From contig CAXWPL010000002.1 in assembly GCA_963666215.2 (NCBI GenBank), forward strand, positions 128,001 to 192,000: a stretch of DNA of 64,000 nucleotides. The letters are read 5' to 3'. Shown piece by piece: positions 43,840-47,296 of this stretch (positions are counted from its first letter, which is position 1; each line of letters begins with the position of its first letter). Origin of the DNA: Acidobacteriota bacterium. Its GTDB lineage: Bacteria > Acidobacteriota > UBA890 > WLXD01. The notes under the pieces were generated by a model, which was not told the DNA's origin, searched no databases, and saw only the letters and a program-made list of their open reading frames with translations. The translations under genes were made by a program, and so were the position numbers.

Positions 43840-45663
43840 CTACATCCCCGGCGCGGTGATCGCCGTGCCGACCGCGTCGGCAGGCATCGACCGGGCAGGG
43901 GAGGCCGAGCGGTTGCCGAATTCGTCCGCGCCGAAGTCGTCCGGCTGGATGCGGAGCTTACGAATGGCGGCCAGTGCCACCTCGCGGAAAGCCGGAGCGG
44001 CGGCCTGACTGCCGCCGTGGCCGTAGCCGCGCGTCGGCTCGTCAATCATCACCAGAATCAGTATGCGCGGCGCGCTGACTGGTAGGAATCCCACGAAACC
44101 GGCGACGTACTTGGTATAGCGGCCGGTAGCGGGATCGATCTTCTGCGCCGTCGACGTCTTGCCGGCGACCCGGTAGCCCGGAATCGCCGCCGGCTTGCCG
44201 GTGCCGGCGCGCACGACGTCTTCCATGATCAGCGCCGTTCGTGTCGCGATCGACTCTTTGAGCACTCGCCGTCGCGCTAGCGGCTCGTTGATTACGGTCT
44301 CGTCGTCTTGGGCGCTGCTGGCGTGCGTGACCACGTAGGGCCGCATCAAGAGACCGCCGTTGGCGATGGCGGCGACGGCGGACGCCAGCTGCAGGGGCGT
44401 CGCACTGATTCCCTGCCCGAAGGCCATCGAAGACTGCGACAACGCCGACCACCCCTCCGGGTCCTGCAGCAGTCCGATGGTCTCGAAGGGCAAGTCGACG
44501 CCGGTGCGCTCGCCAAATCCGAAGTCGCGTACCCATTGAAAGTAGGTCTCGGGAGAGAGGCGCAGGCACACCTTGATGGTCCCGACGTTGCTCGAGTTCA
44601 TCAGTACTTCGCGGAAGCGCAGCAGGCCGAATCCGAATCTCCAGTCTTTGTAGATATGATTGGCCACCTGCAGGCGGCCGCCCTGACAATCGATGATCTC
44701 GTCCTCGCTCACGACGTTCTCGTGCAGTGCGGCGGCCGCCGTAATGACCTTGAACGCTGAGCCCGGCTCGAGCGGCGTTTGCACGGCGTGGTTGCGCATG
44801 TTGCGCAGCAGGGCTTCGTCGCGGCTGTTCGGGTTGAACGTGGGGTAGGACGCCATGGCAACGATTTCACCCGTGCCGGGGTCGAGCGCCACGATGCTGC
44901 CACTCACCGCGCGGTGCTTCGTCACCGCGTCTTTTAGCGCCCGTTCGGCTGCGAACTGCAGAGTCCAATCGATGGTGAGGTGGATGTCGCGGCCACGCGA
45001 GGGGTCGGTTCGACCCAGTCCACTGCCCGCGATGATGCGGTTCCAGCCGTCGCGCAACGTGTTGAGTCGTCCCGGCTCGCCACGAATCCGCTCGTCGTAG
45101 TACCGCTCGACGCCCGCCTGCCCCACGTTGTCGCGGTTGACGAAACCGAGCACGTGCGCCGCCAGCGTTCGGTTGGGGTAGTAGCGCGTCGACTCTTGGT
45201 GGATCCCGATGCCCTGATGCCAGCCGTTCGCTTTCACGACATCTCGCACTGCCGCCACCATTTCCGGCCGCGCGGCACGACGCAGATAGACGAAGCGACG
45301 CTGGGGGTTGAGCTCGCGCAGGAGATCGTCCTCGCGGAGTCCGAGGATCGGAGCAAGGCGCGCTGCCGCAGCGATGCGATCGGGGAGCAGATGGGGATGG
45401 GCGAAGATCGAGCCGAGGTCGATGCTGGTCGTCAACTTCTGGCCGTCGCGAGCATGGATGTCGCCGCGTTTGGCGACCAGGGGAATCACCGCGGTGCGCT
45501 GATCGCCGCCACGCGCCACCAGGCGCTCGTGCTGATTCACCTGCAAGTCGAACAGCCGCGCCAGCAGAAGCAACGACCAGCCACAGATCGCGGCCATCAG
45601 AAAGATCGCTCGGCGACGGTGGTAGGGCAGCTTTTCGTGGTTTTTCAGGCTATGGATGACCAT
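43840..45663 (-). CDS. ftsI: FtsI/PBP3 class B transpeptidase
   Basis: RGDI, RYYP, EPGSAFK, SSN, AGKTSTAQK. Confidence 0.92.
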   Translation of the reverse strand: MVIHSLKNHEKLPYHRRRAIFLMAAICGWSLLLLARLFDLQVNQHERLVARGGDQRTAVIPLVAKRGDIHARDGQKLTTSIDLGSIFAHPHLLPDRIAAAARLAPILGLREDDLLRELNPQRRFVYLRRAARPEMVAAVRDVVKANGWHQGIGIHQESTRYYPNRTLAAHVLGFVNRDNVGQAGVERYYDERIRGEPGRLNTLRDGWNRIIAGSGLGRTDPSRGRDIHLTIDWTLQFAAERALKDAVTKHRAVSGSIVALDPGTGEIVAMASYPTFNPNSRDEALLRNMRNHAVQTPLEPGSAFKVITAAAALHENVVSEDEIIDCQGGRLQVANHIYKDWRFGFGLLRFREVLMNSSNVGTIKVCLRLSPETYFQWVRDFGFGERTGVDLPFETIGLLQDPEGWSALSQSSMAFGQGISATPLQLASAVAAIANGGLLMRPYVVTHASSAQDDETVINEPLARRRVLKESIATRTALIMEDVVRAGTGKPAAIPGYRVAGKTSTAQKIDPATGRYTKYVAGFVGFLPVSAPRILILVMIDEPTRGYGHGGSQAAAPAFREVALAAIRKLRIQPDDFGADEFGNRSASPARSMPADAVGTAITAPGM

Positions 45664-46033
45664 CGGGTCCTCGTCCGCCGCCGCTGGTCAGCAGGAGCCG
45701 CTCTCCGCCGCTCTGCGGGCGTCCCAGGCTGGCAACCTGTTCGGGAAGGGGCTCGCCAAGTCCCGCGAGCTCGCGAGCCTTGTGTTGCAGCCGCCAGGGG
45801 TCGAGCTCGACCGCGCGCTCGATCAGCAGCTGGCCGCGGCGCTCGTCGAGGTCGGCGAGACGACTCTCGAGAGCGGCGATTTGGCCGCGGTTCTCGTGCA
45901 AGCGCGCGCGCTGAGAAGCGTAGAGGAAGCCCGGGATGATCAGCAGAAGGATCGCCACGATGAGCTGCCCGAAATAGGTGAGACGCTCTGGGTCGCTCGG
46001 CTTGGTCAGCTGCCGGTTGATGACACGTGGCAC
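45650..46033 (-). CDS. ftsL: Cell division protein FtsL
   Basis: TM plus coiled coil between rsmH and ftsI; GGGAG RBS. Confidence 0.75.
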   Translation of the reverse strand: MPRVINRQLTKPSDPERLTYFGQLIVAILLLIIPGFLYASQRARLHENRGQIAALESRLADLDERRGQLLIERAVELDPWRLQHKARELAGLGEPLPEQVASLGRPQSGGERLLLTSGGGRGPDGHP

Positions 46034-46120
46034 CGGACACTACTCCCAGCTTGAGCCGATCGGGCGTTTATGGCATGCGTGGCGGGACGATCTCTCCCGG
46101 TGGCGATTCGTGGACGCCTA

Positions 46121-46274
46121 AGAAGGAAGCGAGCGGGGAGAGTCGGGCATCTGTGGCTCCAAAGGCCTGGGGCGAAAGCTAGCCAGGGTTGTAAAGGGAG
46201 GCATGTTTACAACGCATGGGTTACTAGCTGGCCTTGGAGCCACAGATTCCCGACTCTCTTCGTCGCTCCTTTCT
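46121..46274. repeat. 154-nt imperfect inverted repeat / candidate structured RNA
   Basis: About 43-bp outer stem (e.g. ATCTGTGGCTCC/GGAGCCACAGAT and GAGAGTCGGG/CCCGACTCTC) plus inner stems AGCTAG/CTAGCT and GTTGTAAA/TTTACAAC. Confidence 0.85.
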
Positions 46275-47296
46275 CAGAGGTGCCTGACCGCGCGGAGACG
46301 GGCACTCCGTGCGCGCGGGTTGGCGCCGATCTCACGTTCGCTCGGTAGCATCGGTCGCGAGGTCAGAATCTCGACCTCGGCACGCTTGTCACATCCGCAG
46401 ACCGGCATCCGAGGCGGGCACTGGCAGTCACTCGCGAGGTAGCGGAAGGCGCGCTTGACCTGCCGATCCTCTAGCGAGTGGAAGGCGAGGGCGATGAGGA
46501 CTCCGCCCGGTGTCAGTAGCCGTGCCGCGGCGATGAAGAACTCTTCGAGCCGGGCGATCTCGTCGTTGACCGCGATGCGGAGTGCTTGGAAAGTGCGAGT
46601 GGCTGGGTGGATACGCTGCGGACCACGGCTTCCGGCCGCCGCCGCAACCACCTCGGCCAACTGGGTCGTGCCAAGTAGGGGAGAGGACTCGCGCGCTTTC
46701 ACGATGGCGCGCGCGATCCTGCCGGCCTTCGGCTCCTCGCCATAGTCGCGAATGATCGCCTTCAGCTCCCCAGCCTCCAGACGGTTGACCAGGTCGGCAG
46801 CCGTGCGAGGCTGCTTCCTGTCCATCCGCATATCGAGTGGGCCCTCGCGGCGGAACGAGAAACCCCGCTCTGCCGTTTCGAGCTGAAGTGACGAGGCGCC
46901 GAGGTCGACGAGGATTCCACCCACGTTCCCCCACCGGTGATGTTCGGAAAGTTCGCGCAAATCGCGGTAGTCGGAACGAATGAGCTCGTAGCGGCCATTC
47001 CACCGTGAAAGACGTAGATCTGCCATTGCCAGCGCATCGGCATCACGGTCGATGCCCACGAGCCGACGATCGGGCATCGCCTCGAGCAGAGCGTCGGCGT
47101 GACCGCCAAGTCCAACAGTGCCGTCGATGAGCAGGCCCTCAGCGCTATCGCGCAGCAACTCGACGACCTCGGCCAGCATGACGGGCCGGTGCAGGTCGGC
47201 GGGGCGGCTCTCTGCCTGAGAACGCGGGCGGATCGCGGCCGCCATGTCGATTTCGAGACCGATTTTCGCGACGGCACTACGAGCGCTCAACATCAT
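46274..47296 (-). CDS. rsmH: 16S rRNA m4C1402 methyltransferase RsmH
   Basis: HRPVM, DGTVGLGGH, DLGASS, PLDMRMD, FQALRIAVN, FHSLEDR. Confidence 0.96.
   Translation of the reverse strand: MMLSARSAVAKIGLEIDMAAAIRPRSQAESRPADLHRPVMLAEVVELLRDSAEGLLIDGTVGLGGHADALLEAMPDRRLVGIDRDADALAMADLRLSRWNGRYELIRSDYRDLRELSEHHRWGNVGGILVDLGASSLQLETAERGFSFRREGPLDMRMDRKQPRTAADLVNRLEAGELKAIIRDYGEEPKAGRIARAIVKARESSPLLGTTQLAEVVAAAAGSRGPQRIHPATRTFQALRIAVNDEIARLEEFFIAAARLLTPGGVLIALAFHSLEDRQVKRAFRYLASDCQCPPRMPVCGCDKRAEVEILTSRPMLPSEREIGANPRARSARLRAVRHL

Follow-up and report, generated by a model that had tools for sequence, protein, structure and literature searches.

FtsL is a dose-sensitive core protein of the divisome, and to our knowledge little is understood, model organisms aside, of how its level is set in the long dcw operon. 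RNase III processing stems occur in polycistronic RNAs such as phage T7 early mRNA and rRNA precursors, the mraW RNA motif (RF01746) of Actinobacteria lies upstream of mraW, and the prophage small RNA DicF blocks ftsZ translation. Ribosome-mediated attenuation is exemplified in Bacillus subtilis by bmrB, the leader of bmrCD (PMC4191407), translational coupling of a uORF by Sinorhizobium (PMC13285730), and a structured RNA of the dcw cluster by UpsM, an extended 268-nt 5′ leader found upstream of mraZ in Rhodobacter sphaeroides and belonging to Rhodobacteraceae (PMC5089854). A literature search revealed no description of an rsmH–ftsL intergenic hairpin, of a dcw structured RNA in Acidobacteria or of leader-peptide coupling of ftsL, and for RNA motifs of mraW or mraZ it yielded nothing that bears on the element.

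The window analysed here is a stretch of 64,000 nt from an Acidobacteriota genome (contig CAXWPL010000002.1, positions 128,001 to 192,000). On its minus strand, the ORF list and tblastn to relatives placed rsmH, a homologue of the 16S rRNA m4C1402 methyltransferase gene, at 46274–47296 and ftsL at 45650–46033, with a GTG start at 46033 and GGGAG just upstream; the syntenic genes of relatives showed 54–67% (rsmH) and 35–52% (ftsL) protein identity. The gap between the two genes is 240 nt (46034–46273, minus strand). The initial annotation stated that rsmH and ftsL normally abut, and this is roughly true: the spacer was at most ~50 nt, or an overlap, in 21 of 25 other Acidobacteriota and 79–236 nt in the other four, all lengths being script estimates and two of the 21 loci (L172 and L178) coming from genomes flagged unpublished (G047 and G071).

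The gap is occupied by a long hairpin. The inverted repeat reported to start at the rsmH stop was present, with arms at 46138–46162 and 46234–46258 that are 96% complementary over 25 nt, and the rod in full extends from the rsmH stop as far as 46118. On the mRNA strand (minus), the 5′ arm (46230–46276) is drawn from folds, the inverted repeat and covariation in relatives, and the 3′ arm (46121–46167) from folds and translation, as it also forms codons 13–28 of a small reading frame. The rsmH stop TGA (46276–46274) is itself part of the rod base, where CUGAGAA is paired with UUCUUAG in the fold. Between the arms lies a conserved core of 62 nt (46168–46229, minus strand; alignments A1 and A2) composed of AGCUAG, an internal loop, the P3 hairpin and CCUGGCUAGCUUUCGCCCCA. 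P3 (GUUGUAAA / UUUACAAC, 46188–46213, minus strand) closes a loop CAUGCCUCCC at 46205–46196, and its plus-strand reading at 46196–46205 is GGGAGGCATG, as had been claimed. The 162-nt element counted from the rsmH stop folded at −90.7 kcal/mol on the mRNA strand (z −12.1). A 257-nt stretch gave −116.4 kcal/mol on the minus strand (z −7.0, with none of 200 shuffles as stable) and −130.1 kcal/mol on the plus strand (z −5.9). Both of the mutually exclusive interior pairings proposed earlier, a rod extension and a side hairpin, exist in the sequence; on the mRNA strand the rod register was better than a slipped register by 2–5 kcal/mol and than the side hairpin by 7–12 kcal/mol. The gap holds a non-chance, functional-looking RNA structure, most likely cis-acting on the dcw mRNA.

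Like the RNase III stems of phage T7 and rRNA precursors, the element combines an extended, almost perfect duplex between cistrons with a small loop inside it, lies within one operon and is found in phage and host. The predicted duplex of 25–43 bp with single-nucleotide interruptions is longer than the at least ~20 bp taken as the length criterion for an RNase III substrate, and RNase III processing of the rod is possible. RNase III sites, unlike this element, need neither a conserved apical sequence nor an embedded frame.

The element was not seen a second time in the window, and this extends to the whole 4.65-Mb assembly, where its own reverse complement is the sole other match and the remaining matches are 16–25-nt chance hits (E ≥ 0.77). 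Using model R1, we found a similar hairpin in 23 of 26 genomes of one Acidobacteriota order, including all 12 of those at least 90% complete; it was between rsmH and ftsL at each of the 20 loci having both flanks on the contig. Each of the 23 genomes contained one copy, the two matches of genome G013 representing one locus seen at two contig ends. The arms covary rather than stay conserved, and the earlier option of a MITE or REP sequence was not borne out, since the hairpin is single-copy in the genome. Among 138 other Acidobacteriota genomes sampled, the element was absent, with two weak chance matches, neither in the dcw cluster. The known range is narrow, namely two families of uncultured Acidobacteriota, hereafter the window's family and the sister family.

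The Infernal/Rfam check that had been proposed, covering 6S RNA (RF00013) and the mraW motif, matched no family. In the Rfam 15 scan of positions 45500–47000, all that emerged was noise from miRNA-like hairpins, the best at E 0.023 and 27 bits where the gathering score is 99, and six further loci, including both phage copies, gave no matches at E ≤ 5. The element is a new RNA family without Rfam counterpart. Like the mraW motif, it is a structured RNA tied to mraW/rsmH in the dcw cluster; unlike it, it lies downstream of rsmH and in another phylum, and the motif was matched neither in the window (E ≤ 10) nor in the six further loci (E ≤ 5). With UpsM the element shares a clade-restricted structured RNA on the dcw cluster, a Rho-independent terminator and possible dual roles in cis and trans; UpsM differs in being a 5′ UTR for which no embedded ORF is reported, and the Rfam scans showed no sequence relation.

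The apex of the element is the most conserved part. A 34-nt apical block (A2 columns 48–81) was 94–100% identical between the two families and the 62-nt core 79–83% identical, with ~65–70% identity in the alignable DNA of rsmH, ftsL and ftsI. By contrast, the zapA–rny spacer of the window's genome, used as query, found no match in 25 relatives. From these alignments, purifying selection is acting on the apical block. In the stem, double changes were observed at six pairs, and 97.6% of the cells in the stem alignment were paired, compared with 32–51% when the partners were slid. The lower six pairs of P3 were invariant across 33 distinct sequences, and its top pairs changed from A-U to G-U on the mRNA strand in several lineages. 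On the mRNA strand the invariant block translates as PPFTTLAS(F/I)RP. Its synonymous sites and unpaired positions did not vary, indicating that peptide coding is not the sole constraint and perhaps not the main one. With the apical 34–62 nt frozen at such positions, the RNA sequence itself must also be read, and the reader may be a partner, a tertiary fold or codon-specific effects.

The small reading frame in the window comprises 28 codons (MPPFTTLASFRPRPLEPQMPDSPRSLPS, 46118–46204, minus strand). It starts in the P3 loop with AUG at 46204–46202, followed by CCU CCC, and ends with UAG at 46120–46118, the 3′ base of the rod. The CCUCCC had been described as anti-SD-like; it does lie in the apical loop on the mRNA strand, and is at least as readable as two Pro codons right after the start. 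We compared 45 sequences (16 from the window's family, 27 from the sister family, and the phage contigs L065 and L070), all of which contained an in-frame start codon in one of three forms: AUG inside the loop (16/16 of the window's family), AUG located 15 nt upstream (27/27 of the sister family), and, in L065, UUG in the loop with the upstream AUG lost. The rod around these starts is very stable and carries them in its loop or an internal loop, and no Shine-Dalgarno-like sequence was found before either start codon form. An upstream AUG as the start in the window's family was rejected, because indels that change the length of the loop shift that AUG among all three frames. The 41-aa form of the frame shared words with no protein in a collection of 5.8 billion sequences, as would be expected of small ORFs that have not been called.

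In the sister family the frame ended 1–2 nt before the ftsL start in all 27 sequences, with lengths of 33, 34, 36, 40 and 43 codons. Every indel within it was a multiple of 3, while the stop-start gap itself varied by 1 nt; the frame of the C-terminal half of the peptide is conserved and its sequence is not. Genus g3 of the window's family had the stop 5 nt before the ftsL start in 7/7 sequences. In total, the stop adjoined the downstream start in 35 of 45 sequences (27/27 of the sister family, 7/7 of genus g3, and phage L065). In the window's family the frame was not kept beyond the rod and diverged in 9 of 16 sequences, which had no such adjacency: the window has a gap of 84 nt, and the others ended 28–161 nt into ftsL out of frame or formed in-frame fusions. 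A U-rich tail following the stem on the mRNA strand was found in 26 of 27 sister-family sequences and in none of 16 from the window's family. A terminator scan flagged L020, and in the window no terminator-like site was detected, the best 8-nt stretch having 3 T.

Considering these features, we favour, as an evenly balanced call, that the element is a cis-acting translated leader combined with a structured RNA that gates ftsL within the dcw operon mRNA. Translation of the small frame, coupling and attenuation are what we infer from the compared sequences. The long stable hairpin would carry at its apex the start of M-PPFTTLAS(F/I)RP, with the body of the frame as its 3′ arm, so that ribosomes starting at the apex would unzip this arm. 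In most relatives they would stop 1–5 nt before the ftsL start codon, and we propose on this ground that ftsL translation is coupled. In the sister family, where the stem is followed by the U-rich tail, the same apex-started ribosomes would also block formation of the terminator-like hairpin, a putative ribosome-mediated attenuation. Without such ribosomes the rod would form, with three possible outcomes for the mRNA: a block, termination, or exposure to cleavage specific for double strands.

This arrangement resembles leader-peptide attenuators and coupled uORFs, in which a terminator-like hairpin is overlapped by a short ORF whose stop adjoins the start of the regulated gene, and the ribosome position decides the RNA fold. 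Unlike leader-peptide attenuators, the element lies in mid-operon between rsmH and ftsL instead of in a 5′ leader, its start codon is at the apex of a 25–43-bp rod with no SD before it, an obvious alternative antiterminator is lacking, the nucleotides are invariant at synonymous sites, and the terminator tail is present in only one of two families.

A more elaborate version, which we consider distinctly unlikely, is that the apex is a combined nascent-peptide and RNA sensor tying division to translation capacity. Ribosomes would pause on M-PPFTTLAS(F/I)RP, with its two early prolines and (I/F)RP motif, for a time that depends on the frozen codons or on how the RNA folds, and the pause duration would decide between re-formation of the rod (block, termination or exposure) and making of ftsL and the downstream division genes. 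A phage of these bacteria might have captured the module, so that its portal gene and late genes are controlled in the same way.

The same conservation could be read without any translation. A purely RNA-level, untranslated intercistronic element might serve as a processing site (e.g. for RNase III), a stabiliser or an attenuator separating mraZ–rsmH from ftsL onward; a protein would bind the invariant apex, or pairing would occur via the loop CCUCCC and the bulge CGCCCC, e.g. with the ftsL Shine-Dalgarno, and the frame would be a by-product of conservation. The freezing of synonymous and unpaired positions, the length of the duplex, the frame end that is not conserved in 9/16 of the window's family and the terminator-like tail of the sister family are all consistent with this, as are the stable hairpins, unrelated to the window element, that we found in the same spacer of other Acidobacteriota (L163 and L165, L166, L170). 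RNase III degrades mraZ mRNA in Corynebacterium glutamicum, according to the discussion section of a preprint. Such an element leaves unexplained the triplet-only indels together with the stop 1–2 nt before ftsL in 27/27 sister-family sequences, as well as the keeping of three different in-frame starts. Furthermore, the phage contigs L065 and L070 offer no clear SD for loop pairing, and the loop showed no covariation with SD variants. We regard this alternative as somewhat unlikely.

The two metagenome contigs L065 and L070 contained the element core in front of a phage portal gene. The stop of the small frame overlaps the portal start (AUGA) in L065; in L070 there is no stop at the portal start, and the frame is off by 1 nt. 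The phage arms were only 22–38% identical to the host arms and still pair over 15–19 bp. A related phage, L119 (portal 60% identical), does not contain the element, indicating acquisition in the L065/L070 lineage. Pattern scans of viral contigs for further phage copies gave no true matches (L122 was a chance match of an SD region), and three loci of portal relatives in viral contigs were without the element, the best model match being unrelated (E 0.06). The phage copy is located between the portal gene and an upstream ORF that had no Pfam or PHROG match and no BLASTP similarity to the L119 large terminase.

In host and phage alike, an invariant core is seated on stems whose sequence is arbitrary. 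This might also suggest that the apex is cut out of the operon transcript via stem cleavage to become a trans-acting small RNA, with C-rich strands (loop and bulge) that pair with purine-rich ribosome-binding sites; the phage copy would then manipulate the same host targets. The acquisition in one phage lineage fits this idea, and DicF would be a conceptual precedent. We think it quite improbable, as no complementary targets emerged apart from generic SD pairing and the idea leaves unexplained why the sister family conserves the frame.

The phage context of the same core, the wobble statistics without overall strand bias and the several MAG assemblies broken inside the element could instead point to a feature of the DNA, such as the relic of a mobile element, a site forming a cruciform or a single-strand hairpin, or a phage-host recombination or attachment site. 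The element occurs once per genome, at a locus that is fixed throughout an order, and its arms covary, unlike conserved transposase or recombinase sites. No integrase or transposase adjoined it in the stretches examined, and the phage copy is not at a phage genome end or attachment region; we hold a DNA-level role to be extremely improbable.

The initial annotation favoured the plus strand, citing G-U pairs and the GAAA loop. In the window the wobbles do favour this strand (4 G-U pairs against 1, and −95.6 against −85.3 kcal/mol), and the plus strand folded better in 31 of 41 sequences, with 197 G-U against 120 in the MFE folds; the window's family also keeps an A-C opposition on the mRNA strand. 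The preference is not general: wobble totals on the mRNA strand were balanced, at 71 G-U against 58 A-C, the top pairs of P3 and the inner pairs of P1 use G-U on that strand, and the GNRA loop is lost in the sister family, where it reads GAAU. The U-rich tail and the conserved frame belong to the mRNA strand, and the element has the same orientation as the flanking genes in all three contexts, which speaks against an antisense RNA.

As for a 6S-like RNA, the element is likewise rod-like, of 115–160 nt, with an interior asymmetric loop, and the RF00013 search showed no 6S RNA in 13/13 genomes of the order, against 91/138 other Acidobacteriota (one of the 91, G161, being flagged unpublished), which counts in favour of this reading. 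Unlike 6S RNA, it had no RF00013 match on either strand, is inside an operon, and has an apical part that is too short, with only ~14–17 bp beyond the would-be bubble (P2 5–6 bp and P3 8 bp). A better candidate is held by zapA–rny, the 6S locus in other Acidobacteriota, which retains a spacer of 199–348 nt at 13/13 loci of the order. In genus g3 this spacer gave a 6S-like fold (rod, bubble and internal stem); the family-wide consensus had no pairs on a poor alignment, and the fold was obtained for that genus only. A functional plus-strand molecule, whether antisense regulator or 6S-like RNA, has very little credence with us.

Three further resemblances were pursued and dropped. The CGCCCC bulge resembled the ACANCCCC bulge of the NAD+-I (nadA) riboswitch as given in PMC7297122, and was rejected because the bulge lies on the other strand and there was no Rfam match. 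The idea that the element mimics the RsmH target site or the 3′ tail of 16S rRNA was set aside, the matches being too short to count. Complementarity of the element to the genome's own 16S rRNA gave no signal, with a best duplex of −51.0 kcal/mol against a mean of −50.8 for 100 shuffles.

The element unites an extreme hairpin, an apical start codon and silent-site freezing, and is order-wide, single-copy and operon-internal. It looks like operon-internal leader-ORF control of a division gene that was borrowed by a phage, and gives a concrete means of testing how coupled translation controls division genes and how regulatory RNA passes from host to phage. The weight of the case is limited in that leader control is read from sequence and coupling is degenerate in the window's own genome. 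There the small frame ends at the rod base, 84 nt before ftsL, so direct coupling appears to be lost, and the start, the frame and the rod are intact. The 84-nt spacer (46034–46117, minus strand) is ~70 nt longer than in the rest of the family, and alignment A1 placed the extra stretch in the window's genome only. Within this spacer is a weak resemblance to the ribosome-binding region of ftsL (local alignment score 25, matched by 8 of 500 shuffles).

In the window, mraZ, rsmH, ftsL and ftsI are all located on the minus strand, and the ORFs of rsmH (46274-47296) and ftsL (45650-46033) are separated by 240 nt, the distance given in the initial annotation. Its statement that the two genes normally abut held roughly, as 21 of 25 other Acidobacteriota (two of the 21 genomes are flagged unpublished) have them adjoining or separated by about 50 nt at most. 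The gap contained the expected rod-like inverted repeat, a near-perfect hairpin with 96% complementary arms at 46138-46162 and 46234-46258. Fold z-scores of a 257-nt stretch were -7.0 on the mRNA strand (the minus strand of the window) and -5.9 on the plus strand. The 162-nt segment reaching from the rsmH stop codon to 46118 had a predicted fold of -90.7 kcal/mol (z -12.1), matched by none of 200 shuffles; at the base of the rod, the rsmH stop region pairs with bases around 46118-46124. In energy, the rod register of the interior was ahead, on the mRNA strand, of a slipped register (AGCUAG with CUGGCU) by 2-5 kcal/mol and of the side hairpin by 7-12 kcal/mol. The inner helices are invariant across the sequences and thus give no evidence either way on any given interior fold; with these energy gaps, a bistable interior is only possible. 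The spacer at 46034-46117 (minus strand) exceeds that of other members of the family to which the window genome belongs (hereafter this family) by about 70 nt. Within it, a stretch resembles the ribosome-binding region and first codons of ftsL and ends in a stop; this may be a decayed tandem duplication, with weak support (8 of 500 shuffles reached the alignment score).

The element was found in a single copy in the 4.65-Mb assembly of the window genome, which rules out a MITE, one of the options first proposed, as well as a REP element. Through BLASTN of the gap, we detected it in all ten genomes of this family, in 13 of 15 of the sister family of the same order, and in none of 35 genomes of other families. 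By tblastn of the window proteins, it was located between rsmH and ftsL in 20/20 loci with both flanks on the contig, and five loci truncated by contig ends kept the expected gene on whichever side remained. A covariance model built from 41 sequences (94 positions, 20 pairs) found one copy each in 23 of 26 genomes of the order, including all 12 of those at least 90% complete; the three missed genomes are 69-86% complete. In a phylum sample, the model matched 13/13 genomes of the order, and among 138 Acidobacteriota outside it there were two weak matches (E 0.08 and 0.15), neither near rsmH or ftsL. Scanning one genome per species for the exact pattern yielded 23 stretches, 22 from the same Acidobacteriota MAGs and one chance match, and a metagenome scan gave 31 loci, 29 of the rsmH-ftsL type.

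The flanking proteins showed 35-67% identity to relatives (tblastn), and the alignable DNA of rsmH, ftsL and ftsI 65-70%. Between the two families, identity was 79-83% in the core, which is the conserved apical part of the element, and 94-100% in an apical block of 34 nt. The zapA-rny spacer of the window genome, taken for neutral comparison, had no match in 25 relatives. The outer stem covaries, with double changes at six pairs. Comparison of the families shows U-A/C-G and A-U/G-C swaps, and inside the sister family C-G changes to U-G and to U-A. In this stem 97.6% of cells were paired, against 32-51% when the partners were slid.

On the mRNA strand the invariant block reads CCU CCC UUU ACA ACC CUG GCU AGC (A/U)UU CGC CCC, encoding PPFTTLAS(I/F)RP, and an in-frame start codon was present in 45/45 sequences in three forms: an AUG in the apical loop immediately 5′ of CCU (16/16 of this family), an AUG in the 5′ internal loop, 15 nt upstream (27/27 of the sister family and the metagenome phage contig L070), and a UUG in the loop of a second phage contig, L065, where the upstream AUG is lost. 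Stop-start adjacency with the downstream gene is present in most lineages. In the sister family the frame stops (UGA/UAA) 1-2 nt 5′ of the ftsL start in 27/27; five length classes (33, 34, 36, 40 and 43 codons) share this fixed end, so all internal indels are multiples of three, and the stop-start gap varies by one nucleotide. We read these triplet-only indels as selection for an open frame that is presumably translated. Genus g3 of this family has its stop 5 nt ahead of the ftsL start (7/7), and in L065 the stop overlaps the portal start codon (AUGA); L070 has no frame stop at the portal start. Nine of 16 sequences of this family lack the adjacency; some read out of frame into ftsL for 28-161 nt, and in two sequences the small frame is fused in frame to ftsL. 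The predicted 28-codon frame of the window (minus strand, AUG at 46204, stop UAG 46120-46118) stops precisely at the rod's 3′ base, which leaves 84 nt to ftsL. The frame could also be opened from a GUG of the 5′ arm (46243-46121, minus strand, 41 aa, MAPRPASNPCVVNMPPF...); this codon was rejected as the start, being in frame in only 3/16 of this family. In its C-terminal half, the peptide sequence is not conserved. The synonymous positions of the invariant block never change, even in the unpaired loop and bulge, so that coding cannot alone explain the conservation and the RNA sequence must be constrained too; these frozen codons point to a further function at RNA or codon level.

This reading frame decided the question of strand. 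The plus strand favoured in the initial annotation does give the better fold in 31 of 41 sequences, the fold energies of the window point the same way, and on the mRNA strand an A-C opposition is retained in this family. Overall, it was not supported: wobbles on the mRNA strand are balanced (71 G-U vs 58 A-C), with G-U used there by the sister family and by the top pairs of the tip hairpin P3, and the sister family has GAAU in place of the GAAA loop. Of the sister-family sequences, 26 of 27 have a U-rich tail 3′ of the stem on the mRNA strand, against 0/16 of this family, and the element has the same orientation as its flanking genes in all three contexts. Since it is the mRNA strand that carries the frame through the invariant block, we rejected the antisense option.

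In the two phage contigs, the core sits on stems of unrelated sequence which still pair over 15-19 bp; their arms have 22-38% identity to host arms, and the core 93% to the sister family. The gene 3′ of the phage copy encodes a portal protein (Phage_portal_3, 5e-37; phrog_146, 5e-70). The upstream ORF had no Pfam or PHROG match and no BLASTP similarity to the large terminase of L119, a viral contig with small terminase, large terminase and a 60% identical portal in order, and a 34-nt spacer without the element. It was thus the L065/L070 lineage that gained the module, whose most likely source is a sister-family host.

A 6S RNA, another early proposal, is unlikely at rsmH-ftsL. RF00013 found no 6S in 13/13 genomes of the order, compared with matches in 91 of 138 other Acidobacteriota (one of the 91, G161, is flagged unpublished), where 6S lies between zapA and rny. 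That spacer persists in the order (199-348 nt, 13/13 loci with both genes found), and in g3 it folds into a closing stem, central bubble and internal stem (GUGGAGG/CCUCCGC). The order therefore probably keeps at zapA-rny a divergent 6S that RF00013 misses. In the window genome this spacer lies outside the window (contig C2, 467655-467918). An Rfam 15 scan, the check first suggested for 6S and other families, matched no family on either strand of positions 45500-47000 of the window or of six related loci, and the element belongs to no described RNA family. In the other 4/25 Acidobacteriota the rsmH-ftsL spacers are 79-236 nt long with unrelated stable hairpins. Two loci of one other family (L163, L165) carry a G-rich rod of about 150 nt (AAGGGUGAAGGUU... 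/ ...AUCUUCACCCUU) that encloses the start and first codons of ftsL (MA..VGRSSPLF). Shorter hairpins were seen at L166 and L170. These hairpins suggest that structuring of the ftsL initiation region is a recurrent need; they support a cis role for the rod, but leave its invariant apex unexplained.

The feature described in the initial annotation was confirmed and its interpretation held in part: of the roles initially considered, that of a cis element remained. The most likely reading, to which we give about an even chance, is a translated leader plus structured RNA gating ftsL. Ribosomes would start at the apex and translate down the 3′ arm, thereby opening the rod. In the sister family, they would keep the terminator-like hairpin from forming and reach the ftsL start; in this family, with a longer stem and no U-tail, the rod may act by translation coupling (g3) or processing, and in the window genome the coupling would be degenerate. 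No leader ORF or structured element in the rsmH-ftsL gap was described in the literature that we searched. Leader-peptide attenuators and coupled uORFs (bmrB leader, PMC4191407; Sinorhizobium, PMC13285730) are nearest in working, and UpsM of Rhodobacter (PMC5089854) is nearest as a clade-restricted RNA on the dcw cell-division gene cluster. The RNA family and its operon-internal arrangement are new, with a narrow range.

Contigs of four genomes end in the element (G013 C366 and C86, G024 C237 and C485, G019 C136, G020 C7), these short-read MAG assemblies being broken in or beside the hairpin; the long inverted repeat has probably disrupted assembly there.
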